A stretch of 64,000 nt of DNA from Candidatus Omnitrophota bacterium (lineage in GTDB: Bacteria > Omnitrophota > Gorgyraeia > 2-01-FULL-45-10), in NCBI GenBank assembly GCA_043798375.1, contig JAZDOS010000042.1, forward strand, positions 5,037-69,036, given 5' to 3'. The notes under the pieces were generated by a model. It made no database searches. It saw only the letters and a list, made by a program, of their open reading frames with translations, and was not told the DNA's origin. Shown here in pieces: positions 17,412-55,209 of this stretch. A program made the translations under genes and the position numbers. Within the stretch, counting starts at the first letter, position 1. Each line of letters begins with the position of its first letter.

Positions 17412-20400
17412 ATGATATTCAGGAAAACAATTTCGGTTTTTGTAATCTTCACATTTCTGTTCTCGAACGTCGCTTTTGCCGTACCGGCTAAATCCAACAT
17501 TGAACTCGCAGGGAATAATGAGACGGTCACGACCCCCGAGAGCATAGTTGTACCGCGTGATTTCGGGCTTGTTAAGAGTAAATTTAACGGCAACTCCGGC
17601 AAACTTATAGTCCACATCCAGGACGCGCACTGTAATTATGAAGCCCAGTCTAATATCGTTAAAATATTGGAGGGATTGGTAAAGAATTACTCTTTTGGCC
17701 TGGTGGCGGTGGAAGGCGCCGACGGTTTCATCGACACTTCGTGGTTCAAGGCGTTCCCGGACGATGAGGTGAGAAAAGAGGTCGCCGATTATTTCATGAA
17801 GAAGGGCGAGATCACCGGCCCCGAATTTCTCTCCATCACCACAAACCTGCCGTTTAAACTATTCGGCGCCGAAACCCGCTCCTATTACATCCAGAACCTG
17901 AACGCGTTTACCTCAAGTTACCCATTAAAAGACGAAACCGAAAAATATTTCAACTCTATCAAAGCCGTTTTAAACCGTTTAAAAGGCTTTATATACAGCG
18001 AAGAGCTTAAGGTTCTCGATACAAAGATTCAGGATTACGAATCGAAGAAACTTCAGTTCAATGATTATATCAGATTCCTGCAGGCGATAGCCGAAAAACA
18101 TAAGATAAATTTAAGAAGCTACGATAATTTCTTCAGGCTCGTGAGCGTCCTCATATATGAAAAGAAGATAGATTTTAATATCACCGACAAGGAGAGAAGC
18201 GCGCTGATTGATGAATTAAGCAAGGCCGTCGCCAAAGACCAGCTTCAGCAGCTCGTAACGCAGTCCATATCATTCAAATCAGGTAAAATTTCATCCGCCG
18301 AATATTACGCGTATCTGAAGAACCTCGCCGCCGCGAACGGCATTGATCTTTCGAAGAAATACCCCAATCTTTATAACTATATAATATATAACGCCGTCTA
18401 CTCCAAAATAGAGAATGAAAAATTATTCCAGGATTTAAAGAAGATAGAGATCGCGGTCAAAGAGAAGCTCTTTGCCAACGATGACCAGAGAGCGCTCGAA
18501 AAACTCTCCCGCCACATCGACATACTTCTCGGCCTCATCAATATAAAGCTCATGAACGGCGATTTCGATTACTACCAGGCCGATAAGAGCGAGTTTACAT
18601 CGGAATATTTCGAGGATTTCATAAAGAAGAAGGTTATCCAGTTCGGCCTTGCCTATGATGTAATGGCGCCAACCGAGGCAGTCGCGCAAAGCATACCGAA
18701 ATTAGAGGATTTCTACTCAATAGCCATAAAGCGCGACAAGGCGCTCGTCGATAACACGCTCGACGCGATGAAGAAAGAGAAACAGAACATCGCGGTCCTT
18801 GTGACAGGCGGCTTCCACTCAGAAGGCATAGCCAAACTCCTCGAAAAGCAGGGCGTCTCCTACATGGTCGTCTGCCCGTCTATCACAAAAGACGTCCCCT
18901 CACCGTACATACAGATACTGACGAATCAACGCACCCCCCTTGAGGACATTCTTATCGGCACCGCCCACGCGAAGGAAGGGATGGTCGCCGCGCCTTCAAG
19001 AGCACAACTTATTACCATGCCGGACAGCGCATTCAAAGACTATGTCGGAAGACTTGAGGCCGGCGAAAAGCTTGCCCTGGCAATAAAGGCTGCAGAAGAA
19101 GAATGGGTGGACGTAACCGTGAGCGGCGCTGAAGGAGCCGCTACACCTGTCGGCAGAGTTAATATCGAAGGGCTCGTCGACCGCTTAAAGGAAGATACGG
19201 GGGCAAGCATTGCCGGTATAGTGAATGAGTTAAGGCACGACCTCCATCAGAGATGCGACAGATTACATTTATCGAAGATCTCAATCGAGCATCTTCTTGC
19301 TCTTCTCGAGGAAAAGCTGACATCGCCAGAGTTTAAAGCCATTACTGACAAATTCGAGGCCGAATACAACGAGCGCGTTGCAAACCGTGCGGCGCTGGAA
19401 GCGCGCCGTAAAGGCGCCGCGGAATCCGGCCGGAAAAGCCCGGGCAGGGACGCAGTAGCGGGAATCGGCGAGCGCGCTTTAAGGGCAGATGAGTTCGGCC
19501 GTTACGACAGCAATCTCGGAGCAAATTTTGAGGCAAGCAGGGTTGAGACAAGAGACGAGGAATTACCGGGCCTCAGGGTCCATGTCCACGGCGATATCAA
19601 CGGCAGTTTCGAGGAAGGAATAGCCGCGCAGAATGACGATGCCCTTCTGAACGGCGGGGCTACGATTCCATTTCCAAGAGTGCATCCCGGGACATACAGA
19701 GGCTCTGCTCTTTCGCGGGAAATCGATGGGCAGATCGAAGAGATCGCTGGGCAGATACATGTAAGCAGGTACATATGGGACAGCGAAAAGATCGCGGATG
19801 TTTCTGACAGTATCAAAATAACCAAAATGGATAAAGAGGTGGTAGGAAACCACGAAAAGGCCCATCTCGATATATTCGCAGGCAAGGGCGATATATTCAG
19901 GCTTTGGCTTCTCTATCTGGAGTACTGCGCGATATATAAGAAATTCGTAGACCAGGAAGACTTTGTAGATAATATTCAGAGCTGGGTAAGCCTTTTGACA
20001 AAATGGGCCAATAAAGGGACAAATGATAAAGGAGATATTGTTAAGGACGCCGAAAACAAGATGCCTATAAAGGAATGGGCGGTGATGAACGGTGTGCCGC
20101 TTGATGCTCGTCCCGGGGATTTCCCGAACTGCAATACCATCGAGATCCGGAAGAAGATAGCGGCATTACAGGCCTTGAGGATATACAAAAGGGCCAGATG
20201 GGCGCTGACCAATATAGACGAGAAAAAAATGAGGATAGCGCTTACCGAGGCCTATGTGCTGGCTGCGAATTACGGCGATGACGAACTGCTCAGTAATATC
20301 ATAAACCTGATCCCCGCACAACCTGGTATGAGGAAAGAGATATGCGGCAGGGCTATACTTCAGATAGCCAAGTGGTATCCGCTATGGATAAGGAAGGACC

Positions 20401-23400
20401 TTTTTAGGACAGCATCCCCGGGAACCATGGAACTTCTGGACCAGTGGCGTACGGAATCAGGCGCGGACCACGAGATAACGCCTAAAGATGTTGTCGCGGT
20501 CATCATGGCCGGCGGCGGCGGAGAAAGGATGTGGCCGCTCAGCGTTACGGAAGACCCCAAACAGATAACCGATATCATTGACGAGAAACTCCTTGTCATG
20601 GCCGTCCGCAGGGTGATAGAGCATCTGGGAAGGAAGAATGTCTACATCCAGACCATCCCAAAGCTTAAAGATAAGATCGTAAAATTGTTAAAGGATGCCG
20701 GTCTGAATATCCCGAAAGAAAATATATTCGCCGAGCCGGAATCTGCGGACACATCAGGCGCGATAGGCTATGCAGCCGCAAAGTTAAAGAGGTTGGGCAG
20801 AGGCAATGACGTGATGTTCGCATGTACCGCCGACCATTATATAGATGTAACCTCACCCGATTTCAGGAGCGCCTATATGCACGCGGCTAAGATAGCCAAG
20901 CACAATCAGGCGATAGGTACGTTGGGCATCGATCCCGAGCCAATAGGCGTATCGGAAGAATACGGCTGTATAAGGAAAGGCGGAGAGACCTTTTATGAAG
21001 GAGGCCATGTAGCCGCTAAGTTCATCGAAAAACCGAAAGGGAAAGACGCGAAAGATATATTCAAGGAAAGACTCCCTGATAATAGCCACGTATGGCTTTA
21101 TAATAGCGGGATGTTCATAGGAAGACCCGATATATTTTTAGAGGCGTTCAGGCAAGTCGCTCCTGTCTACGGCGAGGCGTTCGATGCCATAGCGGACCCG
21201 GAGGCTACGCTGGAGACGGAGGCGAAGGCCTTCAAGCAGTTAGGTGAGAATAAAAAGAAGGGTGGGTTTATTCATTCCGGAGAACCGACAGGATTCCGCA
21301 AGGGCGTATCGGTGGATTATGTATTAGCCCAGCCCGTCTCGAAGATGGAAACCGACAGGATCGCGCTATTTATGGTTGCGGGCACATTCAAATGGAAAGA
21401 TATAGGCAGTTATGCGATGGCCTATGCATATTATAAAGATGATTATCTCGGAACGCCTGACAAAGGAGACGCATCCGCAAAAACAGGTGTCTATAAAGAC
21501 GCAGATAATAATATCGTTGTGAACAAATCCTCCGACATAACACCGGCGCCCTATGTTAATTTTGAAAGCTGCTCAGAATGTTTTGTCATTGCCAATGATC
21601 CTGATGCGAGGATAACGCTTAAGAATCTCACAAGAACGATAGTAATCTATAACCCGACTACAAAATCGGTTATGGTGGCGCCTATTAGCGTAGAAGGCGA
21701 TTCTATAAAGAAGCTTCAGGGCAGGATAGGGGCGAGGGCCGCCTTAAAAGGTTATGTATTGGGCAATTTATCAGGGATTGAGCCGTCAAAAAAGAGAGCG
21801 GTGATTAGGGGCAGGTATGATGATAAGACAAGCTCAATTGTCATGGAAGAAGCTGACCAGAAGAATAATGTTGTCGAAGAGTATCTGCAGGGCAACGGCA
21901 TAATCATCGGATCCGAAGGATGCAGTATATCTGTAGGTGTTGGGCTCGCCACAATTGTTGATATGAAAGACGTCTCTCTGGACGTGCGACAGTCAACCGC
22001 TGACGGCATAAATATATCAGTGGAGAAGAAAGGCCCTGCCGCGGCATCGGCAGGTACGGCAGTTTCCGCGGGGATCACACTCGCGCATCTAGAGACACCT
22101 GCGGAGCGGATAGGGAACACAAGGATGATGCTTGAGCGGCTGGATATAAATCACATTACGCCCGCCGCATATGCCGGCGTTTACGGCGTGAGCGAGGATA
22201 TCGCGAAAACGGAGATAGGTAAGATATACGAAGAAGATATCGATAGAATAATAAAGATCGCGGCAGGCATCTCCAGGCTTAAAATCGATAGGAGCGACCC
22301 CGCTAAAATAGCCCATTTGGACGGCGAGATCGAAAAGCTGCAGAAGACGGTAAAAGATATCGTGCTCGAGAGAAAGAGCCGCGGCACGCTCGTTCCAGGA
22401 TGGATAAGGCTTGTCGTAGAAGGCATAAAAGACAGGGCGGAGTACAAGGAATCTTCACGGGTCAGGAGCGAAACGGTCCGGCTGTGCAATACCGTCTTTG
22501 CCGAATCAAAGGAAAACGAAATATTACAAGATGCCGCCAGGACAGAGAAGGAGCGCATCTTAAAAGATAAAGAGCTTATTACCTTGAGTCCGGCCATATG
22601 CAGGCGCGATTCAGTCAGGGCAGAAGACGCCGAACTTGAATTATCGGATACCATAGCCAATATATTGGGCAAGTCTATGGTGATGCTTATGCTGAAACAG
22701 ACAAAATTGACCGATCCGTCTAAACTAAAAATGGTCGTGGGCAGAGAATCGCGGATCACTGGTCGGCGCATATTATCCGCTTATAAGAGAGGCCTCCTTG
22801 ATATGGGCGCCAATGTTTTGGACATCTCCAAGACGGAGATCGATACCCTTGAAGGAAGGCAGGTAAGCGAGGTGGTAAGTACGCCTCTCATCTATTTTGC
22901 CAATCAGCTTCTCAACCCGTCCTCTGCTACCGAGATAACCGCAAGCCACCTACCTAAAGCCGCAAACGGTATTAAACCGACCATCATGAAAAGGAACGTT
23001 ACAGCGGATGAGATGAAGGTGTGGGAAGAACTGACCCATGATATTATTGACGGGAAGATCAAACCGTCCGGAAACAAGGGAGCCGAGACGAGCGATGCAT
23101 CGGTCTTGGGTTATTACCATTTGATGCTCAGCGCTACCCTGGCCGAAATAATAAATGATGAATCAAATGCCGCAGGACAGGCCCTCGTGAATAAGTGGCG
23201 CCTGGGGAGAAACGATGTCCTTAATAATGGGAAGACTTTAAAACAAGCGCTTGATGATATAAAGAACGAGGTCGCGGCATATATGGGAAGTAATCCTCTG
23301 TGCGGCATGAAGATGGAAATAGACCCCGGCAACGGCTCCATGGGGCCGATAGCGATTCCCTTACTGATAGGCCTTGGAGCAGAAATCCCGGCCGCGCCGA

Positions 23401-26400
23401 CGCACATACCGGACGGAATATTTGAAGGACTGGGAAGGCATGACTCAAACCCAAATATCCCGGATAACCTGCGTATCCTCATACGGAGAGTCTTCGATAA
23501 CAAGGCAAGTATGGGGGAGGCCTTTGACGCCGACGGCGACAGGCTCGGCGTTATTTCAAGCGAAGGCGACTATCTGCAGGGCGACGATATAGCGTGCCTT
23601 ATAGCTCCCGTACTTATAAAGATGAGAAAGGAATTGACCGGCAAAGAACCGGTCGTTATCGTCAATAATCTCTGCAGTGATCAGCTGAAACAAGTTATCA
23701 GGGAGGCGGGCGGTAGGGCGGTTGAATGCAATGTAGGTTTCACTAATGTAAAAGCGAAGATGACCGAGTTAAGAGATCAGGGTAATGAAGCGATCATGGG
23801 CGTGGAGCTTTCCTCACACATTATGATGGATATGAATTTCGACTCGGATGACGCGTTTTTCGCATCGATTGTGCTTATAGGCATATTGAAACAGAAGGCC
23901 CGCGAGCTTAGCGTGACACCGCAGGAGGTAATGGGGCTCATGCGGAAGGAATTAAATGCCAGATATTTTAAGGTAAATCCCATAGGAGAGGGCCGCGTAT
24001 TGATGTTAACAGACGATACGCGCAAAGAGGCGGCCGCGAAAGCAGTGGAAGAATGCAAGAGGAGGATCGGCGATCCAGAGTATCAGTATATATACGAGAA
24101 GAATCCTGATAGGGAGACGGAAGACCTGGAACGGGAAGGCGGGATCAAGATAGATGTAAAAGAGAGAGAGACCGGCGAGCTTATGGGTTGGTTTGTTATA
24201 AGGCCGTCCGGTACCTCGGCGGAGATAGTCGTCACCGCGGAGTCGGTAGTCGGCGTCCATGCCGAATCGGAGGCAAATGCCATTATGAACGCCCATAAGA
24301 TCAAACAGGAGGTGATAGACCTTCTCCGTCCTTATGAGAGATGGGTTAAGGTTGACGAGATACAGCCCTCGGACTTTGGCGCTGTCTTCAAAGCAAGGCT
24401 CGAAGGCAAGGATGTCTCTGAAGTTAGAGCTGTCGAGAGAGCTGATATCTTCAGAAAATCAGTCGGCATGCTGGCTGTGGGGCAGGCAGATGAAACGCCG
24501 CTTACGCCCGGCGCGGATGAAATAATCGCGTCGATTATGGAAGAGGTTGTGGTGCCCGAAGGCATAAGCGAAGCGAGGAACGCGGCGGCGGGAGAGCGAT
24601 TGATGCAGGAAATAAAGGGTAGCCTTCCCGGCGAGCATACGGATAGGATCGCCTCCATATATAATGAAGTGGTAGCGAGGGTTAAAGCGGCGCGTCTCGG
24701 GACCCGCATAGCCGCTCAGGAAACGACCGCGCAGTTTCTCGCAACTCAGGAAGTGAGGGACGTTACGGTTAATGGGGAAACAGGCGCCCTTATTGTGCCG
24801 TCATCCAGCGATTACAAGGACAGGGGCCAGCACGATTCTACTTACATGAAACTAAGGGGCCTGGCCGCGAATGCCTTGGTTAGCGCGCGGAAATTGTTCG
24901 CGCGGCACCAGTATGAGACGGTTTATTCCATGAACCACGGCGCTCTTCCGATCCCGGAGACGTTGAGGCAATTGGCGTCTTATAACAACGTAAGCCCGGA
25001 AAATTACAGGATTCACGATACATTCTTCCCGCAGGTGAATCCGCTGTTCCCGGGAAGCATACAGTACCAGGTTACGGGCGCCCATTACCAGGCGAATGTC
25101 TTTGACATAAAGTATGTTACCGAGGGTAAAGGCCTGCAGTATCTTGTAAAGGTTGACAGGAAGGCGTTTGAGGAGACCGGCAAGGTCGTCGTGGTCGATA
25201 CGATCGTGCAGGAGATGGCGCCCGGCAAATGGGTATACGCCCTGCCCGGCTATATAGATATAGTGGTGAATAAAGGGGCATTGAGATTTAATGATGTTTC
25301 CTATGAATTGAGCCCGCAGGAACTGGAAAAACTCGAAAACGAGACCGGCTTTAAAATAGATATGGATACGAATTTCTATGAGAAACTGCCGGCGAAAGGG
25401 ATGGCGCATCTATTCTACATGTATAACGGCGAGACGCGTGTTGCGCTCAACCCCGAAGTTATGCCCGAAGGTAACCTCAATATAAGGGTAATGTCAGCTG
25501 GCCTTCCGACGATGGCCGAAAAAGAACTTAAAGTAGGCCTCATGGAGATTTACGCGGCCAATCCAGGCATAGTTCAGTCCATGATGTCGCTTCGATATCT
25601 TGAGACAGTTAATGAGAAGATGCCGTTTGCGCCTGCCATGATACAGGCAATTCATCCGAAAGAAACCATCGTGCCGGAATCGATCGATGTCTTGAATAGC
25701 AGCGCTCAAGAAGCGGCCTTATTCTTTGAGGCATTAGAACAAGAGATCGGGCAAGGGAATCCTATAGAATTCTTACCCAATGTGAGATGCGGCAGGAAGA
25801 ACAATCAGACTTGGGGCGTGCCTGTCAGCGTGTCGATGATACTCGAAGGGCTGGGGGCTCGAACTCGGCAGGAAAAAGAGGCGCTTGTCGATAGGCTTAA
25901 GATTGATATCGATGATGTGGTGAGCGAGCTCTGGATAGGCGCGGACATGGAGCATCCGTCAATGGTAAATGTAAAGACAAAGTATTCAGCGCCTGTATAT
26001 GTGCTATTCGGTAATTATCCCGAAGAAACTTTCGGCAAGGATCATTTAGACGCATTCGGCCGGGATTTCGGCTTGTTGATAAAACACCTCAATTCGGCCA
26101 GATACTTATCCGCCCAGAACCATGTATTTACCGAAGGGGTAATACCTTTAAATAAAGAATCGGTTGCGGTGATGGGATTCGCGAGAGATATAGGGCCCCA
26201 GGAATTGGAAGAAGAATTGATCCGGGGAAAAGAAGAATCGCTTAATAGGGTTGTTCTTATGGAGGGAAAACCCTATCTTGTTCCCAAAGGCATGATGCAT
26301 GCCTATGGGCCTGTCAATGTCCTTGAGATAAAGGAACAGAGCCTTGGAAAACCTGATACGGGTATGACCAATTCCATATATGATAGGTTAAGCGTGCCGG

Positions 26401-27605
26401 CAGGACAGAAGACGCCTCCGGCCGAATGGCCAACGATGAGACAGAATAATCCGGCGGAACTTGCAAAGGCTGTTGGCATCGATTCCAGGAGGACCGGAAA
26501 AGACGTATTGACCATGGCCCGCGAGGCATGGCAGAGGGCATTAAACGTTATGGCCGAGAACAATATGCTGAAGGAGGCAAAACCTCAAGATTATGAATCG
26601 CCGGTTATAAACTTACGTCCCCAAGCGATAGGCGGTAAACTGGAAGGCATGATGTTAGAGCCGGGCTTTGTCGTTGAGAGGTTTGAGATCCATGCAGGCC
26701 AGACGATGTTAGCTGAGGAGCTCACGTTCGGCAGGGCGAGCATAATCATGGTGCAGGAAGGCGCGGTGGATTTGACAACAGAAAAAGATGTGCCGATAAC
26801 GACATTGAAAGCCAAAACAGAAGATAGGTACAGGCTTAATCTATCTGCATATCCGTCTTATAAGATTACAGCCGCTCAGGGCCGGAAGGCTATCGTTGAT
26901 GTGATGTATAAACCTCTTCCGGCCGAGGCGCTCGTCAACACGGGCTTTGAGGCAATTCGCGCCAATCTTCCCGCTGTGCGAAGCCAGAAAGTTCATTTGC
27001 TCACGACTTCAAAAGCGTTCCGAAGGGGTGACGTGCGTGACCGCGAACCCGGCTCGTTCAGATATGAAAAGGAGATTTTAAACCGCGTATCCGACGGCAG
27101 GGTGGAATTATCGGAAGTCATAAGCTGTGACGCGGGCGAATTGAAAGAGGCCCTGCAGGGTTTGATGAAGGGCGAAGAAGGCGTCAATTACGTCGTCCAA
27201 CTTACCGAGGGCGAATTTAATTCGATCAAAGACGATAAGGACATAGCGAGGCTTTTGAAAGATACGAGGCTCATGGTTCTTCCCAATGTCAAGCTTGGCG
27301 AAAACCGCGGCATACCGTTCATCAGAGAGATTGAATCGGCCGGTGTAATACTCGGTAATACAAAACCGGAGGATATCCGGGATAAGACGGCTATAGCCGG
27401 ATGGTTGAAGACCGTAATGTCGAAGTTGACCGGCAACAAAGCGATCGACTGGGAGATGCTCGCGACGCTATTGAAGTCGCCGGACCCGGCGATGTCATTC
27501 GCCGACAGGATAAGTATTCTGCTCAAGAACCTGCAGGTCAGGATCCAGCCGCACAAGGCCGATGAAGGCGTGCGTGAAAGGCGGCAGCTCTTGTGGAGCG
27601 TGTAA
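17412..27605 (+). CDS. Giant secreted multidomain protein (3397 aa) with an N-terminal signal peptide, an embedded ManC-like mannose-1-phosphate guanylyltransferase domain, an embedded ManB/PGM-like phosphohexomutase domain, and large novel regions
   Basis: aaggag RBS 8 nt upstream of the ATG. Signal peptide MIFRKTISVFVIFTFLFSNVAFA. Uninterrupted 10.2 kb ORF. Confidence 0.85.
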   Translation: MIFRKTISVFVIFTFLFSNVAFAVPAKSNIELAGNNETVTTPESIVVPRDFGLVKSKFNGNSGKLIVHIQDAHCNYEAQSNIVKILEGLVKNYSFGLVAVEGADGFIDTSWFKAFPDDEVRKEVADYFMKKGEITGPEFLSITTNLPFKLFGAETRSYYIQNLNAFTSSYPLKDETEKYFNSIKAVLNRLKGFIYSEELKVLDTKIQDYESKKLQFNDYIRFLQAIAEKHKINLRSYDNFFRLVSVLIYEKKIDFNITDKERSALIDELSKAVAKDQLQQLVTQSISFKSGKISSAEYYAYLKNLAAANGIDLSKKYPNLYNYIIYNAVYSKIENEKLFQDLKKIEIAVKEKLFANDDQRALEKLSRHIDILLGLINIKLMNGDFDYYQADKSEFTSEYFEDFIKKKVIQFGLAYDVMAPTEAVAQSIPKLEDFYSIAIKRDKALVDNTLDAMKKEKQNIAVLVTGGFHSEGIAKLLEKQGVSYMVVCPSITKDVPSPYIQILTNQRTPLEDILIGTAHAKEGMVAAPSRAQLITMPDSAFKDYVGRLEAGEKLALAIKAAEEEWVDVTVSGAEGAATPVGRVNIEGLVDRLKEDTGASIAGIVNELRHDLHQRCDRLHLSKISIEHLLALLEEKLTSPEFKAITDKFEAEYNERVANRAALEARRKGAAESGRKSPGRDAVAGIGERALRADEFGRYDSNLGANFEASRVETRDEELPGLRVHVHGDINGSFEEGIAAQNDDALLNGGATIPFPRVHPGTYRGSALSREIDGQIEEIAGQIHVSRYIWDSEKIADVSDSIKITKMDKEVVGNHEKAHLDIFAGKGDIFRLWLLYLEYCAIYKKFVDQEDFVDNIQSWVSLLTKWANKGTNDKGDIVKDAENKMPIKEWAVMNGVPLDARPGDFPNCNTIEIRKKIAALQALRIYKRARWALTNIDEKKMRIALTEAYVLAANYGDDELLSNIINLIPAQPGMRKEICGRAILQIAKWYPLWIRKDLFRTASPGTMELLDQWRTESGADHEITPKDVVAVIMAGGGGERMWPLSVTEDPKQITDIIDEKLLVMAVRRVIEHLGRKNVYIQTIPKLKDKIVKLLKDAGLNIPKENIFAEPESADTSGAIGYAAAKLKRLGRGNDVMFACTADHYIDVTSPDFRSAYMHAAKIAKHNQAIGTLGIDPEPIGVSEEYGCIRKGGETFYEGGHVAAKFIEKPKGKDAKDIFKERLPDNSHVWLYNSGMFIGRPDIFLEAFRQVAPVYGEAFDAIADPEATLETEAKAFKQLGENKKKGGFIHSGEPTGFRKGVSVDYVLAQPVSKMETDRIALFMVAGTFKWKDIGSYAMAYAYYKDDYLGTPDKGDASAKTGVYKDADNNIVVNKSSDITPAPYVNFESCSECFVIANDPDARITLKNLTRTIVIYNPTTKSVMVAPISVEGDSIKKLQGRIGARAALKGYVLGNLSGIEPSKKRAVIRGRYDDKTSSIVMEEADQKNNVVEEYLQGNGIIIGSEGCSISVGVGLATIVDMKDVSLDVRQSTADGINISVEKKGPAAASAGTAVSAGITLAHLETPAERIGNTRMMLERLDINHITPAAYAGVYGVSEDIAKTEIGKIYEEDIDRIIKIAAGISRLKIDRSDPAKIAHLDGEIEKLQKTVKDIVLERKSRGTLVPGWIRLVVEGIKDRAEYKESSRVRSETVRLCNTVFAESKENEILQDAARTEKERILKDKELITLSPAICRRDSVRAEDAELELSDTIANILGKSMVMLMLKQTKLTDPSKLKMVVGRESRITGRRILSAYKRGLLDMGANVLDISKTEIDTLEGRQVSEVVSTPLIYFANQLLNPSSATEITASHLPKAANGIKPTIMKRNVTADEMKVWEELTHDIIDGKIKPSGNKGAETSDASVLGYYHLMLSATLAEIINDESNAAGQALVNKWRLGRNDVLNNGKTLKQALDDIKNEVAAYMGSNPLCGMKMEIDPGNGSMGPIAIPLLIGLGAEIPAAPTHIPDGIFEGLGRHDSNPNIPDNLRILIRRVFDNKASMGEAFDADGDRLGVISSEGDYLQGDDIACLIAPVLIKMRKELTGKEPVVIVNNLCSDQLKQVIREAGGRAVECNVGFTNVKAKMTELRDQGNEAIMGVELSSHIMMDMNFDSDDAFFASIVLIGILKQKARELSVTPQEVMGLMRKELNARYFKVNPIGEGRVLMLTDDTRKEAAAKAVEECKRRIGDPEYQYIYEKNPDRETEDLEREGGIKIDVKERETGELMGWFVIRPSGTSAEIVVTAESVVGVHAESEANAIMNAHKIKQEVIDLLRPYERWVKVDEIQPSDFGAVFKARLEGKDVSEVRAVERADIFRKSVGMLAVGQADETPLTPGADEIIASIMEEVVVPEGISEARNAAAGERLMQEIKGSLPGEHTDRIASIYNEVVARVKAARLGTRIAAQETTAQFLATQEVRDVTVNGETGALIVPSSSDYKDRGQHDSTYMKLRGLAANALVSARKLFARHQYETVYSMNHGALPIPETLRQLASYNNVSPENYRIHDTFFPQVNPLFPGSIQYQVTGAHYQANVFDIKYVTEGKGLQYLVKVDRKAFEETGKVVVVDTIVQEMAPGKWVYALPGYIDIVVNKGALRFNDVSYELSPQELEKLENETGFKIDMDTNFYEKLPAKGMAHLFYMYNGETRVALNPEVMPEGNLNIRVMSAGLPTMAEKELKVGLMEIYAANPGIVQSMMSLRYLETVNEKMPFAPAMIQAIHPKETIVPESIDVLNSSAQEAALFFEALEQEIGQGNPIEFLPNVRCGRKNNQTWGVPVSVSMILEGLGARTRQEKEALVDRLKIDIDDVVSELWIGADMEHPSMVNVKTKYSAPVYVLFGNYPEETFGKDHLDAFGRDFGLLIKHLNSARYLSAQNHVFTEGVIPLNKESVAVMGFARDIGPQELEEELIRGKEESLNRVVLMEGKPYLVPKGMMHAYGPVNVLEIKEQSLGKPDTGMTNSIYDRLSVPAGQKTPPAEWPTMRQNNPAELAKAVGIDSRRTGKDVLTMAREAWQRALNVMAENNMLKEAKPQDYESPVINLRPQAIGGKLEGMMLEPGFVVERFEIHAGQTMLAEELTFGRASIIMVQEGAVDLTTEKDVPITTLKAKTEDRYRLNLSAYPSYKITAAQGRKAIVDVMYKPLPAEALVNTGFEAIRANLPAVRSQKVHLLTTSKAFRRGDVRDREPGSFRYEKEILNRVSDGRVELSEVISCDAGELKEALQGLMKGEEGVNYVVQLTEGEFNSIKDDKDIARLLKDTRLMVLPNVKLGENRGIPFIREIESAGVILGNTKPEDIRDKTAIAGWLKTVMSKLTGNKAIDWEMLATLLKSPDPAMSFADRISILLKNLQVRIQPHKADEGVRERRQLLWSV
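20480..21440 (+). other. Mannose-1-phosphate guanylyltransferase (ManC/GMP-like NTP-transferase) domain inside giant protein 2
   Basis: AVIMAGGGGERMWPLS (GGxGxRLWPLS), EPESADTSGAIGYAAA, TADHYIDV, TLGIDPEPIGVSEEYGCIRKG, KFIEKPKGKDAKDIF...WLYNSGMFI, WKDIGSYAMAY. Confidence 0.7.
22630..24300 (+). other. alpha-D-phosphohexomutase (phosphomannomutase/phosphoglucomutase-like) domain inside giant protein 2
   Basis: Active-site serine loop ITASHLPKAANGIK (TASHNP-like), Mg loop FDADGDRLGV, sugar loop GVELSSH, phosphate loop IRPSGTSAEIVV (RPSGTEP-like). Confidence 0.65.
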
Positions 27606-27611
27606 TTATCG

Positions 27612-28135
27612 TTAAACGGTTGCGGTTGCGCGGCTCGCCACGGTTTTCGTTTATCGTAAAACGTTATGGAAGAAAAGAAAACCATCAGAAGTTTTCATGA
27701 TTTGGAAGTTTATCAAATTGCATATCAAGCGATGCTTGACGCATTTAAACATATTTTGCCCAAACTGCCTTCAGAGGAGAAATACGACTTGGTTGATCAG
27801 CTCAGACGTTCGACCAAAGCCATTCCTCGCTTGATAGCAGAAGGGCATTCTAAAAGACATCAGAAAAAAGGCTTTCAAAAATACCTAGATGATGCAATGG
27901 CAGAATCTAACGAAACAATTGTTTCATTGACCCAGGCGAAAGATTTATATTCTTCAGTGATTGATATAAAGATATGCGAAAGTCTAATAGATAATTACGA
28001 TAAGATAAGCAGGCAGTGTTATAAGTTGGGAATTGCTTGGGATAGATTCGGCGATCGTAAATTAATCGACGCAACCGATAGACGATAGACGAAACGAGCA
28101 GCGCAACCGATAGACGAAAGACGTAACCCGATAGG
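27612..28135. mobile_element. Full-length copy of an inverted-repeat element that carries a four-helix-bundle ORF. It is the parent-like member of a 6-copy family; five ORF-less ~100-bp copies lie elsewhere in the window
   Basis: Left arm cggttgcggttgcgcggctcg (27616-27636) is the reverse complement of right arm acgagcagcgcaaccgatag (28094-28113). The AT-rich cargo ORF lies between GC-richer flanks. The short copies keep both arms and the 'gttatg' start context but lack the ORF. Confidence 0.6.
27666..28088 (+). CDS. Four-helix-bundle protein (TIGR02436 / 23S rRNA intervening-sequence protein family, PF05635-like)
   Basis: FHDLEVYQIAYQAMLDAFKHILPKLPSEEKYDLVDQLRRSTKAIPRLIAEGHSKR matches the family hallmark ..FeDLevWqkA..l...iY.lt..fPkeEkygLtsQlrRAavSIpsNIAEG..R. 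Confidence 0.75.
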   Translation: MEEKKTIRSFHDLEVYQIAYQAMLDAFKHILPKLPSEEKYDLVDQLRRSTKAIPRLIAEGHSKRHQKKGFQKYLDDAMAESNETIVSLTQAKDLYSSVIDIKICESLIDNYDKISRQCYKLGIAWDRFGDRKLIDATDRR

Positions 28136-28144
28136 AATTCGACA

Positions 28145-31100
28145 TTGAATAATATTATGCGGAAATACAGAATTATCATCAACACCCTGGCCTGGCTTGT
28201 CATAATAAGCCAGGCCTTTACGCTAAGCCCCGTGTATGCCGACTCGCTCGCCACTCCCAAATTAACCCATCCCGACGCCAATCAGGCCAGAGCCATATCC
28301 AACCTTGCTGAGTTCGAGGTATGCTACGGTGAAAGGCTTTTATATAAGGGTGAAAAGCTTTCGTCCGTTAATTCCGTTTTAAAAAATAGATTTCTGGACA
28401 GGAAAAAAGTTTATTTGAATGAACCGTCTATCCTGGTGCGGGAGAATCTAAAACTCGGTCAAGTTGAATTTATAAGCTACGACAGAGAGAAACAGGCGGG
28501 CGTCTTTAGGTTTAAAGGCAAACCGGACAATTTATATACGGTAGCGCTTATTCCCAGGCAGGGCAAGTACTCGATAACCCTTCATAAGAATTCCTCCGGC
28601 TCGGCATCTCAAAGCCTTGCAAAAACAACTGATAGTCAGGATGAACCCCTCACCGGACACGGGTTCAGCGTGGAGGATGTCAACAAAGTCAAGCTTACGG
28701 CATGGAGCGAATCCGGCGCTTTCAGGAAGGTCATGGATGAGCTCGAAGATATTTTAAAAGCCCGCGCGCCGGATAATCTGAAAGAACTGCTTTTTTATAC
28801 CCTGTCGGCATTTAAAGAAGGCCGTGACGGCCGGCAGCTCGGTTACACGCCCGCCCGCTACAAAGACCCGGCTCATTATTATCTCGGTTTCGGGACATCG
28901 AGATCGATATGCCTCGCCTCCGAATTCCTGGATGAAGAAAGCCCGTTATCGAAATTTGCCGCCGAAGAGCTGTTTCACGAGTTACTGCACGCGGCAATGG
29001 ATATTTCCAAAGACGATTCTTACATCGAGAGCGAGACGGCCAATCATATAACGTCGCTCAGATTGGCCGCGCAATTTTTCTGGGGATTGCCGGAAGAAGA
29101 AGCGCTCTCCCTCTCCCCGAATATGCTCGAGCACCATTCCAGGAACAGCCTCGGCGACGCGATAAGGCTGTGGAAGACGGAACAGCAGGATATACGCGAC
29201 GCCGTCCTCAACAATAAACCGCTTGAATTGAAAAAGATGTTAGTCGACGCGTTAAAGAGAATCGGCAATAATCCGTCGAAACTCTTCGATATTCTCGCCG
29301 TCTGCGATGCCGCGTCGGACGAGATGAAAAGGCATCCGATACAGAGCCGCTATCCTCTGCTTATGGCGGTAACCTTACTGAATAGGAAGCAGAAACTGCA
29401 GCTTGTTAAAGCGGTTAAACAGGGCGGCGATGCTATCGCGGATCTTAAAATAGCGGATTCCGTTCTCCTTATGCTGGAGAAGAAGGTGCGGCCCGATTGG
29501 TTGGGGCACCAGGCGCCCAATCTAAAAGGAAGAACCGTATGGCAGGTTGCCTCGGAGATATGGAATCCCGGCGGAGGGTTAGGGCGCGTAATGCAGTTTG
29601 AGGCCTTTTCTTTCCGCGACATGTTAGGCCAATGCGCGGGCGATGTCCGTCTGAGAACCATAGAACCCCATTACGCGTACGGAAAAGACGGAGTGCCCCT
29701 GGATTACGATAAGATACTCGGCGCTTACGAGGGCAAAGAAGAAAATAGGCTGAAAGAAGTGGATACTTTCGAAGTAACGGTTGGTGACGAGACAGCAATC
29801 GCGGTATGTTCACGCGCCCTCAATCAGCATGGGATCGAAAGTTATATAATTAAGCTCCTCAAGAGGGGCGCAGACGGCAGCCTCTCCCCATATTATACGG
29901 AGGGCATGTATCTTTATCGCGGCGCTGAAGCGCCCGCCGCTGTTCCGATAGAAGATTTTTCCGCGTTCTTCTCTGCCGCCTCGCTTGAGCTTGTCGCGAG
30001 AATTGAGGCAGGGGAAAAAAAGGCTTCCGAGGAAGCCTCATCCTTCTGGAACTATCCGGTCGTATATTTTAATGACGGCCAGCTCGGGCTCGCTCCGTTA
30101 TTCCGCCGGGCGTTCGAACATTTTTCCAATAACCCGATTCTCAAGGAAGCATTAGTCGCTTACAAGACTCACACCTATCCGAACCGGGTCTTTTTCGATG
30201 TGCGCGAGAAGAACGGGGATGAGGGGTATGGCATAAAAGTCCTGAAGCGCTTCGGGATACCGGAAAAATACTGGGAGTATTTTACCCATGTTATCGGTGA
30301 AGAACTGAGCCAGGAGACGAGAGAAGTAGCCGATTTTACATCGGCGGGCCTGCGCTCGGCGGACTGGCAGGCAGGCGTAAGCGCCAAGCAGGCCGACGAC
30401 GTATCGATGTATGACGACTGGGGAAAGTGGAAAGATTTCTTCGAGCTTGTAGCCATAACAAACGGAGATTACCTGCCGATCACCGAATCCCGTTTTGCCG
30501 AGGCCGCCAGGGAAGCGCTCGCGGCCGCCGACATCGAAAGCCTGACCCCCATGCAGGTCTTTGTGGCGAACAGGCGCGCGAAAGAAAACCTGAACGCCTT
30601 TTTGATCAAGCGGCTCGGCGATAAGTATATTTTCGGGATAAGCCCGGACAAACCCGTTCTTTCATATTCCGGAAGGGGTGTTGACGAAAAAGCCGGAAGG
30701 AACAGGGCCCTGTCAAACAGCAACATCATAACTCTGGTGAAGATGGGCGTCCAGGTGGTGATAGGTTTTAATGTCCAGAGCGAGAAACATAACAGGGACG
30801 AGCTGGATAAACTTGCCGAAGAATTGCGCGAGGCAAAAAGCAAAGATCCGGACGGTTACCCCGGCAATTTTATATTTGTCCCCGACAGCGACATAGAAAT
30901 TCAGAGGCTTATCCTTGCCGCTTCAGACGCTCAGGTCCAGGATTCGGATCCGAGGACGGAGGCCGCCGGTTATACGGAATCGAATATAAAAAGGTGCGCC
31001 GGGTTGCAGATAGCGCCGCCCTGGCCCGAGGGAATACTGCAGGCAGGCATCCCCTTTAATTTTAATAAACTCGGAGAAGGGGCTACCATTATTCCGGAAA

Positions 31101-34066
31101 TTACCCTGTCGGAAAGCGATTTGAAAAAATTGCGGCGCGGCGCCTATGATCCCGAGCTGAATAAAAGAGTGAGCCATGCTTACCTTGAATCGTATAAGAA
31201 ACTATTTTCGCTGGGTTATAAGGACGAGGCGGGCCTTGATGAAAATATTCTGGCTAACCTGCGTCAATTGTCGCACCATCAGGCTAACGCGATAAAATTG
31301 AGCCGCGTCTTCGACGCGTGGCTCACTGTGGCTGAAGAGATGCGGCAGTGGTCGGGCGCGATAGAGAAAAGGTTCCCGCGGCCCATAGAAACTCCGCCTG
31401 AAAAACGCGTGGTAATGCTCATATCGGGCGGCGAATCGCCGGGGGTGAACGATTACTTCTCGCTTATGGCAAAGTCGCTCGCGAAGCAGGGCTGCTCCGT
31501 GGAGGCCGTGAGATTCGGGTTGGACGGGCTTGTCCGGGCCAGTGTAGAATTCGACGGAAATCGCGTATGGATCGACTGGGGTAAATCCGAGAATATACTG
31601 CACGCGCCGGGCGCTTTTGAAGGGACCGCGAGGGTAAGGCTCGATGACGCGGGCATGCAGGCCCTGTTGGATAATCTGAAAAGTTATTGTAAAACGCTCG
31701 TCGTCATCGGCGGAAATGACCATCTGGGCGAAGCGGAAAAGATAGCGAAACGGTTAAAATCCGAAGATTCCGATATGGCCGTAGTGGCGCTTCCTAAGAC
31801 GATAGACCGCGATACGAAAATTTATCCGATCGGCGCCGATACCGCCGCCCGGAACGCCAACAAACTGGTTTTGCGCGCGGCGGCCCTGCCGGGATCCGGC
31901 AAGTGCGTTGTCGTCCAGATGATGGGCCGCGACATGGGCTATTTCGCGGTAAGGGCGGGAGATATGAAGCCGAAGGTTCGGGACGGTTATACCGACGCCG
32001 AGATAAATAAGATGGATATTGTCCGGCCCACCGTCGCAACGCTCGTGCCAAATAAGCCGGTACCGCTTTCGGATGTAATTGACGCGGTCAGGGTAAGGAT
32101 GAAGAAATACGGCGCCGCGACGCTCGTCATATCGGAAGGATTCAGGCTTTCCAGGATCACAAGGGACTCGTCCGGAGTTTTTAAATGCGATAGCGATAAA
32201 TTGCTGGAGGGCGCCCTCGAGGATAAATTATTATCGGCAAAACTCGCGAACCTCTCTACCGATGAGCAGGGGAACCCTAATCTCAGCGGACTGGTTGTGG
32301 CGGACTTTCTCGCGGAAGTCCTCGCCCGGGACGAAGAATTAAAATTGATAAGGGAAGAGAACCTGTTGCTTGAAAACCCGAATTACAGCTTCAGGGCTTC
32401 CGCGCCAAACAGCCTTGACCGCGCCGTCGCGGATAAAGCGATCGACTTAGCGAGCCGCGTAATATCAGATCCGGACGAACGCGCGAAGGCAATAAATGCG
32501 GGCGGTGTATGTATCGCCGCAAAGAGGACCGTTTCCAAAGCGGAAGACGTCGAAGTGTCTGTCATACCTTTATCCGAGGCGACAGGAAAGGTAGGCCTTG
32601 ATGACAGCGGCCTCTATACGGATGAGGAATTGTCCGAAAGAAACGTTATCGGATATGCCTCGCCGACAGATAACCTTCCCGATATGCCCGAAACCGAAAG
32701 CCCCGCGCATCCAGCCGGTTATAATAGAGAACATGCCATCATGTGGTTAAATTCCCAGGCGGAATCCGCGAGCGAGATGCAGGCAAAAAGGGGTGATGGC
32801 TGGAGAAGGCCGAATATATGCGTTATCGCCAGGCCGGACGCCGACGATATCATATCGGACCTGAAATACAGAAAGGCCGTATCCAGGGCCGATGAGTACA
32901 TAATGGAGAGGATAGGGAAAGCGACCGTATATATCCCCGCGCTCGAGCCCGTATCTCTATTGGCCATAATAAGGAAGTCGTATGAAGCCTACAATAACTA
33001 TCATATGCTCAATTTGGTGCTGGCGGGGAATATCGAGATCGATAAAAACGACGCTCTGCTGGCAAGATTAATGGAGAACCCTTCCACTAAAGACGCGTGC
33101 GGGGCTATTGTCGGCGGCGCCAGGCATTCCGGAGGAGACAGGTTGATATTCGGAAGAAGGCTCGCGGATCTTATTTCGATGGTTCTTTCTTCGTCCGAAT
33201 CCGTCGCGGCGCTCGCGGCGTTCGGCGAAAAGGCGGGATCGCCCATGACCGATATAAGGACCAATATTCTCGGGGAATCGCTGAACTTATTGCCCGGCGA
33301 GAACGGCCAGCGCATTAAGGCGATCGCCGCTTCTGTTACCGGGGCTATGCCTCAAGCCGAACCGGCGGTTGTAATGAGCGATGACGATATTAACGCTGTG
33401 GTAGAAGCATCCTCCGACGCGGGCGAAGACGCCAGGAAGGCCGCGGAGGCCGAATTCCCCGGCGAAATGCACCTTGTATTCGTCAGGAAGGCGATCCCCG
33501 ATATTCAGCAATCGACTACAATCGCGATGAACGTCTTAAATCTCTGCAGGGAATATTACGCGGATAAACTCGAAGGTTATACCGTTGATATCGTCGACGA
33601 TCACAAGGCCGCCATGGAGCTTCTCGCGAGAAATCCCAACTGGTCCAGGAATGATACAATAATAGGGCTTGTCGATAAGGAAAGCCTTGAAGAGCTGGCA
33701 GGTGAGCTTGAAGCCGGCAATATGACGGATAAGGCAAAGATATTATCGATGCAGAAGGCGGATGACGGCCAGTTTGTTCCCATCAAGCCGTTTTTTGACC
33801 TCATGGCAGCTATCGTGAGGATCAATAGGCCTCTCGACAGGGTGGAAGACAGGGATCTCATCGATTATATCAAAGAGCTGTTAATAAAGATCGGAACCAG
33901 GGATATAGACAGGCTTACCGAAGTCCTTGCCTCTGCCGACTTCCACGATCCTATCCGATTTGCCAGGGACTTTATTATAAGGCTGCTGCCTCCGGCAAGA
34001 AAATTCGACACGACAACGCTGAAAAAACTCTACCAGGCCTCCAAGCTCGTCGTCGAGTCGCTGTAA
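28145..34066 (+). CDS. Giant secreted multidomain protein (1973 aa from the TTG at 28145; the alternative ATG at 28157 gives MRKYRIIINTLAWLVIISQAFTLSPVYADS) with an embedded GT-B glucan phosphorylase/synthase-like segment and a phosphofructokinase-like domain
   Basis: Signal peptide; uninterrupted 5.9 kb ORF; motifs listed under the sub-features. Confidence 0.8.
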   Translation: MNNIMRKYRIIINTLAWLVIISQAFTLSPVYADSLATPKLTHPDANQARAISNLAEFEVCYGERLLYKGEKLSSVNSVLKNRFLDRKKVYLNEPSILVRENLKLGQVEFISYDREKQAGVFRFKGKPDNLYTVALIPRQGKYSITLHKNSSGSASQSLAKTTDSQDEPLTGHGFSVEDVNKVKLTAWSESGAFRKVMDELEDILKARAPDNLKELLFYTLSAFKEGRDGRQLGYTPARYKDPAHYYLGFGTSRSICLASEFLDEESPLSKFAAEELFHELLHAAMDISKDDSYIESETANHITSLRLAAQFFWGLPEEEALSLSPNMLEHHSRNSLGDAIRLWKTEQQDIRDAVLNNKPLELKKMLVDALKRIGNNPSKLFDILAVCDAASDEMKRHPIQSRYPLLMAVTLLNRKQKLQLVKAVKQGGDAIADLKIADSVLLMLEKKVRPDWLGHQAPNLKGRTVWQVASEIWNPGGGLGRVMQFEAFSFRDMLGQCAGDVRLRTIEPHYAYGKDGVPLDYDKILGAYEGKEENRLKEVDTFEVTVGDETAIAVCSRALNQHGIESYIIKLLKRGADGSLSPYYTEGMYLYRGAEAPAAVPIEDFSAFFSAASLELVARIEAGEKKASEEASSFWNYPVVYFNDGQLGLAPLFRRAFEHFSNNPILKEALVAYKTHTYPNRVFFDVREKNGDEGYGIKVLKRFGIPEKYWEYFTHVIGEELSQETREVADFTSAGLRSADWQAGVSAKQADDVSMYDDWGKWKDFFELVAITNGDYLPITESRFAEAAREALAAADIESLTPMQVFVANRRAKENLNAFLIKRLGDKYIFGISPDKPVLSYSGRGVDEKAGRNRALSNSNIITLVKMGVQVVIGFNVQSEKHNRDELDKLAEELREAKSKDPDGYPGNFIFVPDSDIEIQRLILAASDAQVQDSDPRTEAAGYTESNIKRCAGLQIAPPWPEGILQAGIPFNFNKLGEGATIIPEITLSESDLKKLRRGAYDPELNKRVSHAYLESYKKLFSLGYKDEAGLDENILANLRQLSHHQANAIKLSRVFDAWLTVAEEMRQWSGAIEKRFPRPIETPPEKRVVMLISGGESPGVNDYFSLMAKSLAKQGCSVEAVRFGLDGLVRASVEFDGNRVWIDWGKSENILHAPGAFEGTARVRLDDAGMQALLDNLKSYCKTLVVIGGNDHLGEAEKIAKRLKSEDSDMAVVALPKTIDRDTKIYPIGADTAARNANKLVLRAAALPGSGKCVVVQMMGRDMGYFAVRAGDMKPKVRDGYTDAEINKMDIVRPTVATLVPNKPVPLSDVIDAVRVRMKKYGAATLVISEGFRLSRITRDSSGVFKCDSDKLLEGALEDKLLSAKLANLSTDEQGNPNLSGLVVADFLAEVLARDEELKLIREENLLLENPNYSFRASAPNSLDRAVADKAIDLASRVISDPDERAKAINAGGVCIAAKRTVSKAEDVEVSVIPLSEATGKVGLDDSGLYTDEELSERNVIGYASPTDNLPDMPETESPAHPAGYNREHAIMWLNSQAESASEMQAKRGDGWRRPNICVIARPDADDIISDLKYRKAVSRADEYIMERIGKATVYIPALEPVSLLAIIRKSYEAYNNYHMLNLVLAGNIEIDKNDALLARLMENPSTKDACGAIVGGARHSGGDRLIFGRRLADLISMVLSSSESVAALAAFGEKAGSPMTDIRTNILGESLNLLPGENGQRIKAIAASVTGAMPQAEPAVVMSDDDINAVVEASSDAGEDARKAAEAEFPGEMHLVFVRKAIPDIQQSTTIAMNVLNLCREYYADKLEGYTVDIVDDHKAAMELLARNPNWSRNDTIIGLVDKESLEELAGELEAGNMTDKAKILSMQKADDGQFVPIKPFFDLMAAIVRINRPLDRVEDRDLIDYIKELLIKIGTRDIDRLTEVLASADFHDPIRFARDFIIRLLPPARKFDTTTLKKLYQASKLVVESL
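29500..30900 (+). other. GT-B fold alpha-glucan phosphorylase / glycogen-synthase-like segment (GT35/GT5-like) in giant protein 3
   Basis: VASEIWNPGGGLGRVMQF resembles the KTGGLGDV / SGGLGVLAGD glycine loop of glycogen synthase and alpha-glucan phosphorylase. Confidence 0.3.
31390..32130 (+). other. 6-phosphofructokinase-like (PFK family) domain in giant protein 3
   Basis: VVMLISGGESPGVND (GGDAPGMN-like), LVVIGGNDHLGEA (GGDGS-like but altered), ALPKTIDRDT (PKTIDND), QMMGRDMGYFA (MGR motif). Confidence 0.65.
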
Positions 34067-43451: not shown

Positions 43452-43499
43452 GCCGGTAAAATAGGAAATAGTGAAGAGCATTGCGCTGAAAGGATAATC

Positions 43500-45158: not shown

Positions 45159-45163
45159 TCATG

Positions 45164-45288
45164 GATTGCGTTAATCGGTTGCGGTTGCGCGGCTCGTCAC
45201 GTCAAATGTTATGTGTCTATCGTTAAAAAAGACGCAACCGATGTACGATAAACGAAACGAGCAGCGCAACCGATGGACGACAGACGAT
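45164..45288. repeat. Short (~125 bp) ORF-less copy of the inverted-repeat element family, immediately upstream of the response-regulator gene
   Basis: cggttgcggttgcgcggctcgtcacg ... aacgagcagcgcaaccgatgg, plus the internal gttatg..gacgcaaccgat segment shared with the long copy. Confidence 0.8.
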
Positions 45289-45291
45289 CCT

Positions 45292-45960: not shown

Positions 45961-45969
45961 ATCCGGTTA

Positions 45970-46098
45970 CATAAAACGGTTGCGGTTGCGCGGCTCGTCA
46001 CGTCAAACGTTATGCGTCTATCGTTAAAAAAGACGCAACCGATGTACGATAAACGAAACGAGCAGCGCAACCGATAGACGAATAACGCAACCCGCTAG
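45970..46098. repeat. Second near-identical short copy of the inverted-repeat element, immediately upstream of the histidine-kinase gene
   Basis: Over 90% identical to 45164-45288 by eye. Confidence 0.8.
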
Positions 46099-48303: not shown

Positions 48304-48341
48304 AACCTTTAAGGTTGCCTACGGCAACCTTAAAGGTTAAT
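48304..48341 (+). repeat. AGGTTGCC/GGCAACCT-family hairpin in the leader of the second GH-A hydrolase gene
   Basis: ttaacctttaaggttgcc tac ggcaaccttaaaggttaa. Confidence 0.7.
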
Positions 48342-48414
48342 ATGGGTTAGGGTAGCAGGGTCTTGACCATGCCCGCGAAAAGTAGTATAATATATATTCT
48401 CATAAGAGGTTAAA

Positions 48415-52552: not shown

Positions 52553-52563
52553 AAGGTAAAAGG

Positions 52564-55197: not shown

Positions 55198-55209
55198 AAA
55201 AAGGGAAAG

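Follow-up and report, generated by a model that had tools for sequence, protein, structure and literature searches.

A four-helix-bundle gene in a hairpin between two giant Omnitrophota genes has the architecture of a 23S rRNA intervening sequence

Introduction

What is a small gene enclosed in a long hairpin doing between two giant protein-coding genes? We address this question for a 64,000-nucleotide stretch of contig JAZDOS010000042.1 from a Candidatus Omnitrophota bacterium (the whole stretch is called the window here), in which positions 27606-28129 hold an element of about 524 bp with a four-helix-bundle (4HB) gene in its loop. Genes of this family are best known from intervening sequences (IVSs) of 23S ribosomal RNA (rRNA), some of which contain an open reading frame (ORF), the S23p ORF, as in Coxiella burnetii, Leptospira, Xanthomonas and Brucella. 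To our knowledge, no function has been assigned to this ORF in about thirty years, and what is understood of its homologue Avd is limited to diversity-generating retroelements (DGRs). The protein family and the rRNA IVSs are already known, and genome annotations routinely include 4HB genes outside rRNA. Our literature searches found no description, outside rRNA, of elements such as these, in which stems of heptad repeats evolve by compensatory changes, mobile hairpins also occur without the gene, gene-bearing copies are co-oriented within operons, and the spread crosses phyla. Here, we describe the unit at 27606-28129 as an intact copy from a widespread family of small gene-in-hairpin elements, whose arms are built from 6-7-nt repeats, here of the GGTTGCG / CGCAACC type. 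It is probably an IVS-type selfish mobile element that lives outside rRNA.

Results and discussion

The layout of an intervening sequence between protein-coding genes

We set the limits of the element at the start and end of its similarity to four other copies in the window and to copies in other genomes. The left arm (27606-27665, forward strand) consists of CG-periodic units of 6-7 nt of the GGTTGCG type; its outer module is degenerate and adjoins the TAA stop codon (27603-27605) of the upstream giant gene. The right arm (28068-28129, forward strand; repeat family D2) is made of CGCAACC-type units and overlaps the last 21 nt of the ORF. Profile searches with nhmmer matched the left arm at 27609-27657 (42 bits) and the right arm at 28070-28125 (53 bits). 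Both arms have a quasi-heptad rhythm, with consecutive CG dinucleotides 7 nt apart in 42% of intervals and 5-7 nt apart in 75%, against 9% at 5-7 nt in the ORF.

The arms measure about 55-60 nt each and are inverted and imperfect: 27623-27656 is complementary to 28076-28109 (34 nt, 76%) and 27607-27624 to 28070-28087 (18 nt, 83%), with a third inverted pairing between 27609-27624 and 28102-28117. Folded as a 550-nt RNA, the element is closed by a long interrupted terminal stem (minimum free energy -144.5 kcal/mol, z = -3.2, 0 of 100 shuffles as stable). The closing stem totals about 35-40 interrupted bp, a length compatible with excision by RNase III.

Between the arms lies the 4HB gene (27666-28088, forward strand), which encodes 140 amino acids. 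The protein scores 67.8 bits against PF05635, a family named '23S rRNA-intervening sequence protein' (cut-off 33.8, E 1e-18), and 55.5 bits against TIGR02436 (cut-off 24; 'four helix bundle protein'); its scores for NF008911 and NF008912 lie under their cut-offs. The ORF has a GC content of 0.37-0.40, compared with about 0.50-0.57 for the flanks. No rRNA was found in the window at the Rfam gathering threshold, and 27500-28250 was empty at E<=1. The element contains no detectable sigma-70-like promoter or terminator, no Shine-Dalgarno-like sequence precedes the ATG of the 4HB gene, and no nuclease, transposase or reverse transcriptase is encoded.

An earlier, sequence-only reading of this DNA had proposed much of this picture: a TIGR02436-type protein, an ORF richer in AT than its flanks, and the arrangement of a 23S IVS placed between protein-coding genes. 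All three hold, as does the long stem, although the inverted repeats were put at about 20 nt and are in fact longer and less perfect.

An ORF-containing IVS for comparison is that of Coxiella, which is 428 nt long, has its ORF in the loop of a 28-bp stem, carries GACAGAT heptamers before the ATG and a poor Shine-Dalgarno sequence, and is excised by RNase III (PMC4990558). The window element has every architectural feature of an ORF-containing IVS bar location: a size of about 0.45-0.5 kb, a PF05635 ORF in the loop of a long terminal stem, short repeats before the ATG, and a poor or absent ribosome-binding site. It differs in lying between protein-coding genes instead of in helix 25 or 45 of 23S rRNA, and in being accompanied by gene-less hairpins.

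The stem is conserved as nucleic acid

One explanation of the layout would be a palindrome that happens to lie beside an ordinary small gene. To measure pairing, RNAduplex on flanks of 120/170 nt discriminated poorly, as it extends over everything, and was replaced by pair counts in an alignment and a background of fixed geometry. In the latter, the flank-flank duplex energy of the window copy was below that of 99.6% of 508 random positions with the same geometry (empirical p 0.004). The alignment (A3) was made with MAFFT from 41 elements, each represented by its left 62 nt and its right 91 nt, joined together. Its three-helix stem was 77-79% paired, compared with 28-39% when the partner was slid by 1-3 columns.

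Pairing was strongest in the central helix, which in the window is formed by 27623-27642 (CGGTTGCGC-G-GCTCG..ACG; A3 columns 26-45) and 28090-28109 (CGAAACGAGC-A-GCGCAACCG; columns 128-147), both given on the forward strand. About 90% of its cells were paired, and 9-11 pairs had changed on both sides. Examples are pairs 34:139 (CG 24, AU 6, UA 5), 41:132 (UA 29, AU 7) and 32:141 (CG 33, GC 4). Whole segments have changed in step as well: copies from Bacteroidales have GGTTGGGC...CTGG / CCAG...GCCTAACC, where most others have GGTTGCGC...CTCG / CGAG...GCGCAACC. The stem is conserved as nucleic acid, and its central helix is kept by compensatory changes. A chance palindrome would fit the imperfect complementarity of the two main pairings in the window copy, but the arms occur five times in the window, the compensatory changes extend over all 41 aligned elements, and the duplex energy is extreme for its geometry; we consider this explanation next to impossible.

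Arm identity to the window copy was 0.80-0.92 in elements in which the proportion of synonymous differences in the gene (pS) was 0.53-0.80. With arms this similar while synonymous sites are near saturation and the ratio of nonsynonymous to synonymous change (dN/dS) is low, both the arms and the protein must be constrained. Across all stem cells, G-U exceeded A-C combinations by 111:61, which weakly supports pairing of the sense strand, that is, as RNA. Consensus folding of the gene-less hairpins described below gave no covariation; those loci had been chosen by an exact right-arm 17-mer.

A basic helical bundle related to XCC0516 and Avd

An AlphaFold model of the protein, with 27 relatives as input, reached a pLDDT of 85 and has helices at residues 14-33, 39-62, 67-94 and 101-136. 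Its best Foldseek matches were XCC0516 (2GSC; TM 0.74/0.87) and BT_0352 (2RLD), and 2GSC was also the sole match when the PDB was searched by sequence. Of these homologues, XCC0516 forms a pentameric toroid. All family-invariant residues are present in the window protein, which also has a conserved basic segment (9 K/R vs 1 D/E at residues 45-73). Compared with its relatives, dN/dS is about 0.05-0.1, with synonymous sites near saturation as noted above, and the protein is under strong purifying selection; in this it differs from the Coxiella ORF, which is decaying. The C-terminal tails of the relatives, which vary, are right-arm DNA read in differing frames (e.g. ...RNEQRNR and ...ETSSATGKR), which argues that the right arm is conserved as DNA and not as protein.

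We also considered a HEPN-type RNase and rejected it; the R-x5-H in PRLIAEGH is not invariant, and H61 is replaced by Y in several relatives. No defence system was found with PADLOC, there were no phage matches, and plasmid matches were all distant.

Avd, a component of a ribonucleoprotein in which it acts with structured RNA, belongs to the same fold family and is likewise a basic helical bundle. The window gene could in principle be an orphan Avd gene of a DGR, with the arms as remnants of template and variable repeats. Three observations point that way: a PHROG entry, 'Avd protein of DGR', that the protein matches weakly (E 0.0023), an Avd chain (8ub7_C) among the fold matches, at rank 40, and a published description of PF05635 as Avd-like (PMC10053308). 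The sequence similarity is marginal, however, and the company of a DGR is missing. No reverse transcriptase was found in the two flanking giant ORFs that were scanned or in the gene tables of the relatives, and the 64-kb window holds no repeat pair of the template/variable type. The arms are also inverted rather than direct, and they recur as stand-alone hairpins. We judge an origin as an orphan Avd to be very improbable.

Gene-less hairpins and vacant orthologous sites

A BLASTN search with the element found its arms at four further intergenic sites in the window, all of them gene-less and 95-130 nt long. Two are long forms, at 45163-45287 (between a GH113 and a response-regulator gene; z -4.2) and at 45965-46093 (between the response-regulator and a histidine-kinase gene; z -3.8), the latter sharing 90% identity with the focal element's right arm. 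The other two are short forms, at 52562-52656 (between GH94 and GT2 genes; z -5.9) and at 57820-57914 (z -7.1), which are near-identical to each other; all four are given on the forward strand. A second copy of the ORF was not found in the window by tblastn. The multi-copy family announced by the sequence-only reading is therefore one of arms, with the ORF present once.

The long forms align with the focal element up to the base preceding the ATG and resume at 28068, so that about 10 nt separate the arms in place of 402 nt. By these limits, the gene fills precisely the apical loop of a hairpin also found on its own, where the ORF takes the place of a loop of about 7-10 nt. The change between the two forms may have been an insertion or a deletion of the ORF, in either direction. 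We considered whether the hairpins at 45.2k and 46.0k are internal-deletion derivatives that kept the start codon, and rejected this: their 'ATG' belongs to the CG-periodic register of the arm, and the gene-less forms share a conserved loop of their own. A related observation concerns gene calling. The mechanically predicted response-regulator ORF (45211-45960) begins at an ATG within the first of these hairpins, while comparison with two relatives (L086 and L089) places the true start at 45293 (MRILVIEDEKK...); the hairpins can accordingly mislead start-codon calling.

The surroundings of these hairpins are conserved in other genomes. The GH94 gene (50183-52552) has Omnitrophota relatives at 89%, 77% and 74% identity, and the relatives' contigs keep the order GH113 - response regulator - histidine kinase ... 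GH94 - GT2 - ROK - SBP. In the window, the spacers at the 45163, 45965 and 52562 sites measure 134, 150 and 128 nt and are filled by the hairpins. At the first of these sites the orthologous spacer measures 22 nt (L086) and 33 nt (L089), and at the second 14 nt and 35 nt, respectively, with the hairpin absent in each case. At the third site, L089 has 65 nt with an unrelated small hairpin, and in L087 the two genes overlap. This presence and absence in syntenic relatives is direct evidence, by sequence comparison, that the gene-less hairpins were gained as units at three sites of the window, as would be expected of inserted, mobile DNA.

In being short, non-coding and multi-copy, with terminal inverted repeats and presence/absence polymorphism, the gene-less hairpins resemble MITEs (miniature inverted-repeat transposable elements) and repetitive extragenic palindromic (REP) sequences. 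They are similar to Correia/NEMIS elements of Neisseria and other hairpin MITEs, which are likewise intergenic inverted repeats of about 100-130 bp, present in multiple, insertion-polymorphic copies and frequently transcribed together with adjacent genes. RNase III cuts Correia/NEMIS hairpins when these are transcribed. Our family differs in that no cognate transposase is known or was seen, that a full form carries a gene for a non-enzymatic 4HB protein, and that it occurs in many phyla.

Spread and orientation of the gene-bearing form

Database searches gave 3162 relatives of the protein, and the family falls into 1,848 clusters. Identity to the window protein is 73-100% in the top 120 relatives, which come from Omnitrophota, Sedimentisphaerales, Phycisphaerae, Desulfobacteraceae and Armatimonadetes. 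Scanning a single genome from each species yielded 277 confirmed loci; the best 80 of these add Pirellulales, Cloacimonadota, Chloroflexota, Bacteroidales, Saccharibacteria/Patescibacteria, Zixibacteria, Ignavibacteria, WOR-3 and others. Relatives with 60-90% protein identity span more than 10 phyla, including Planctomycetota and Desulfobacterota, and have matching arms at fixed offsets, about 47 nt before and 427 nt after the ATG. Judging by these sequences, gene and arms travel together across more than 10 phyla. None of 85 related loci contained 23S motifs. The ORFs have a GC content of 0.30-0.44 (mean 0.364), compared with 0.31-0.53 in the host flanks (slope 0.38); the element is richer in AT than its host almost everywhere, and its composition is foreign. 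Taken with the vacant orthologous sites, this spread and composition indicate mobility, one of the two possibilities (mobile or RNA-processing) raised by the sequence-only reading.

To compare the two forms, a metagenome sample was scanned with the right-arm 17-mer. Of 81 matches listed, 44 had support from the arm hidden Markov model: 24 gene-less hairpins, 19 with the right arm only or at a contig edge, and a single one with the gene. Gene-less hairpins are far commoner than gene-bearing copies.

Some gene-bearing loci depart from the arrangement in the window. In four Cloacimonadota loci (L023 at 4866-5520, L027, L032 and L050), the gene lies between two complete hairpins (left and right arm, gene, left and right arm) and not inside one. 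In another locus (L028), two or three hairpins lie in tandem a short way upstream of the 4HB gene. In a further one (L001, positions 3620-3680 and about 3757-3830), a solitary right arm lies about 80 nt 5' of a tRNA-like sequence and about 300 nt 5' of a complete gene-bearing element.

Gene-bearing copies are strongly oriented. In 58 of 69 cases they are co-oriented with both neighbours, and in 2 they are opposed to both; the annotated gene tables of the relatives agree. The gaps around them are about 50-120 nt upstream and 10-70 nt downstream, and they occur in core operons too, such as fhs-folD. The ratio of 58:2 is much steeper than replication-strand bias would give, and together with the absence of a sigma-70-like promoter, a terminator and a Shine-Dalgarno sequence it points to expression by read-through.

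Could the element instead be a domesticated module that benefits its host, the stem serving as a processing or stability signal inside operons and the 4HB protein as a regulator? The strong purifying selection on the protein, the conserved stem and the co-oriented position within operons, core ones included, would all suit such a role. It is harder to reconcile with the patchy distribution over unrelated phyla and gene neighbourhoods with no consistent gene partner, with a composition foreign to the host, or with the syntenic relatives that lack the hairpins. We consider a host-beneficial module unlikely.

The same layout with unrelated arms in distant relatives

More distant relatives of the protein (32-35% identity), taken from a plasmid collection, share the layout in six of eight sampled cases, with unrelated arm sequences. 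In Nostoc flagelliforme, three copies of GGGAGCA face three copies of TGCTCCC (27 nt, 96% complementarity), with a further outer pair of 24 nt. Flanking arms were also found in Nostoc sp. MS1, Brasilonema, Leptolyngbya and Picosynechococcus (GGAGATA), and were absent in Oscillatoria and Pseudanabaena. In Azospirillum lipoferum, it is a 23S rRNA gene (Rfam LSU, 1725 bits) that contains the 4HB gene, which lies between arms at 954-989 and 1387-1422 built from GAGGACG / GATGACA units. By its coordinates, this insertion is near model position 1160, which we infer to be the helix-45 region; the window protein is about 32% identical to this IVS protein. Counting the window copy with the eight sampled, the duplex energy was beyond the 1% tail of 508 random positions in 5 of 9 elements.

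In five cyanobacterial and Azospirillum members (L211, L213, L214, L217 and L218), the left arm is purine-rich, with GGAG/GAGG repeats directly 5' of the ATG, and the right arm has CCTCC-like motifs. The stem in these members could sequester Shine-Dalgarno-like sequences. The GGTTGCG subfamily of the window has neither the GGAG/GAGG nor the CCTCC-like motifs. Two of the distant genes sit among CRISPR genes: on a Pseudanabaena plasmid (L216, 1007-1366) the 4HB gene lies co-directionally between cas6 and cas4, and on a Picosynechococcus plasmid (L217, 992-1348) between cas10/cmr2 and cmr3. Such 4HB genes wedged into CRISPR-cas operons probably explain reports of the family as 'cas-associated'.

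These distant members bear on a further explanation, in which the hairpins are MITE- or REP-like repeats moved by a transposase or RAYT encoded elsewhere, and the 4HB gene is a passenger in one loop. This would account well for gene-less copies that are insertion-polymorphic, lie in either orientation and greatly outnumber the gene-bearing ones, as well as for a protein that has no recognisable catalytic domain. However, PF05635 genes are found with inverted heptad arms of unrelated sequence in distant branches (GGGAGCA in Nostoc, GAGGACG in the 23S rRNA gene of Azospirillum, GGAGATA in Picosynechococcus, and again in Leptolyngbya and, as reported, in Coxiella), and a layout that recurs with unrelated arms makes a chance passenger unlikely. 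The offsets between arms and ORF are also fixed across phyla. On balance, a mere passenger seems to us improbable, to about the same degree as a domesticated module.

How the element may work, and what weighs against it

We favour an IVS-type selfish mobile element outside rRNA. Such an element would have no promoter of its own for the 4HB gene and would rely on read-through transcription that starts from the upstream giant gene. In the transcript, RNase III would then cut the interrupted stem, as it does in rRNA IVSs, which would free the 4HB mRNA and split the messages of the two giant genes. The analogy with rRNA IVSs and Correia/NEMIS hairpins and the length of the stem suggest this step, which we hold to be a serious possibility while stopping short of calling it probable. 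The basic 4HB protein might in turn bind, in RNA or DNA form, the repeat-built stem that encloses its own gene, and so promote the maintenance or spread of the element and, in trans, of the gene-less forms. Homology with pentameric XCC0516 and with Avd, together with the basic segment, speaks for such binding, and we put it forward more tentatively than the cleavage.

Several points weigh against this reading or parts of it. Some genomes have several gene-bearing copies, but these paralogues are only 55-76% identical, and an identical protein (P0064) found on 36 contigs proved to be one locus, fhs-4HB-folD, seen in many samples; together they give no sign of a recent burst or transposition of the gene-bearing form. 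For the focal copy, a vacant-site comparison had no partners, the flanking giant genes having no detectable relatives. No target-site duplication could be defined, as the spacers are too diverged among relatives for the junctions to be aligned; 'TAAAAG' is present at both ends of the 57820 copy only. The gene-less hairpins show no orientation preference, which means that the hairpin as such need not be sense-transcribed, and in the central helix G-U exceeds A-C by just 39:27. With these two observations it is conceivable that the structure may act as DNA rather than RNA. The covariation of the arms may stem partly from one DNA-binding protein that recognises both ends, and the binding of the stem by the 4HB protein is itself something we infer. 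Finally, the homologous ORF of Coxiella is seemingly not expressed (PMC4990558).

The relation between gene-bearing and gene-less forms recalls REPIN-RAYT systems, in which a single-copy protein gene is likewise flanked by palindromic repeats that are dispersed elsewhere without the gene; the Cloacimonadota loci, with the 4HB gene between two complete hairpins, are especially similar. RAYT is an enzyme of the HUH/Y1 transposase family, whereas the 4HB protein lacks such a domain. Inheritance is vertical in REPIN-RAYT systems, whereas the present family is spread across phyla. There is also some likeness to homing-endonuclease ORFs in the loops of group I introns, where an optional ORF sits in a peripheral loop and an ORF-less form exists; unlike these introns, the element has neither a ribozyme core (Rfam negative) nor an endonuclease domain.

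A broader and more speculative idea is that PF05635 genes and heptad-repeat stems form an unrecognised, very widespread class of enzyme-less mobile elements, with gene-bearing masters and gene-less hairpins related as in REPIN-RAYT. Through recognition of the stem, an Avd-like pentamer might bring in host functions, be it RNase III, recombination or a reverse transcriptase in trans, and 23S IVSs, insertions into cas operons and perhaps the Avd of DGRs would be offshoots. We regard this as possible, though rather less likely than otherwise.

If the element is indeed a free-living mobile module in ordinary operons, it would come with gene-less forms and with stem-specific co-evolution in many phyla, and the rRNA IVSs would represent just one of the habitats that a broader class of elements occupies. 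The protein and its stem could then be tested directly as a pair, by assays of binding, of cleavage by RNase III and of mobilisation. In the Omnitrophota genome, the element could uncouple the expression of two giant genes. For annotation, the hairpins matter in that they can produce spurious start codons, and they may divide the transcripts of operons and disrupt metagenome assemblies.

Neighbouring genes and other repeats

The window contains three consecutive giant ORFs, at 99-17108 (5669 amino acids), 17412-27605 (3397 amino acids) and 28145-34066 (1973 amino acids), of which the last two flank the element. The 3397-residue protein has NTP_transferase and PGM/PMM domains and the 1973-residue protein a PFK domain, so that in both, domains of sugar metabolism are fused into very long, otherwise unmatched sequence. 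The C-terminal 349 residues of the former have no homologue in a collection of 5.8 billion proteins, and the latter has no relative in JGI metagenomes.

Other repeats are present in the window as well. A second hairpin family (D5) occurs as intergenic tandem repeats at 57400-57540 and 48311-48350, in which GAGGTTGCC-AAA-GGCAACCTC is followed by GGTTGACAGGTAAG; its GGTTGC core is one that the 4HB element's arms have as well. Between the ROK and SBP genes, 55094-55200 (family D7) consists of two tandem 55-nt units that are 98% identical, each palindromic (TCTAACCAGGTTAAACC...GGTTAGA). Lastly, A-rich repeats with a period of 14 nt (AAAGTAAAAAG...; family D3) are found at 43490-43570 and 50048-50128, at intergenic sites or the starts of genes.

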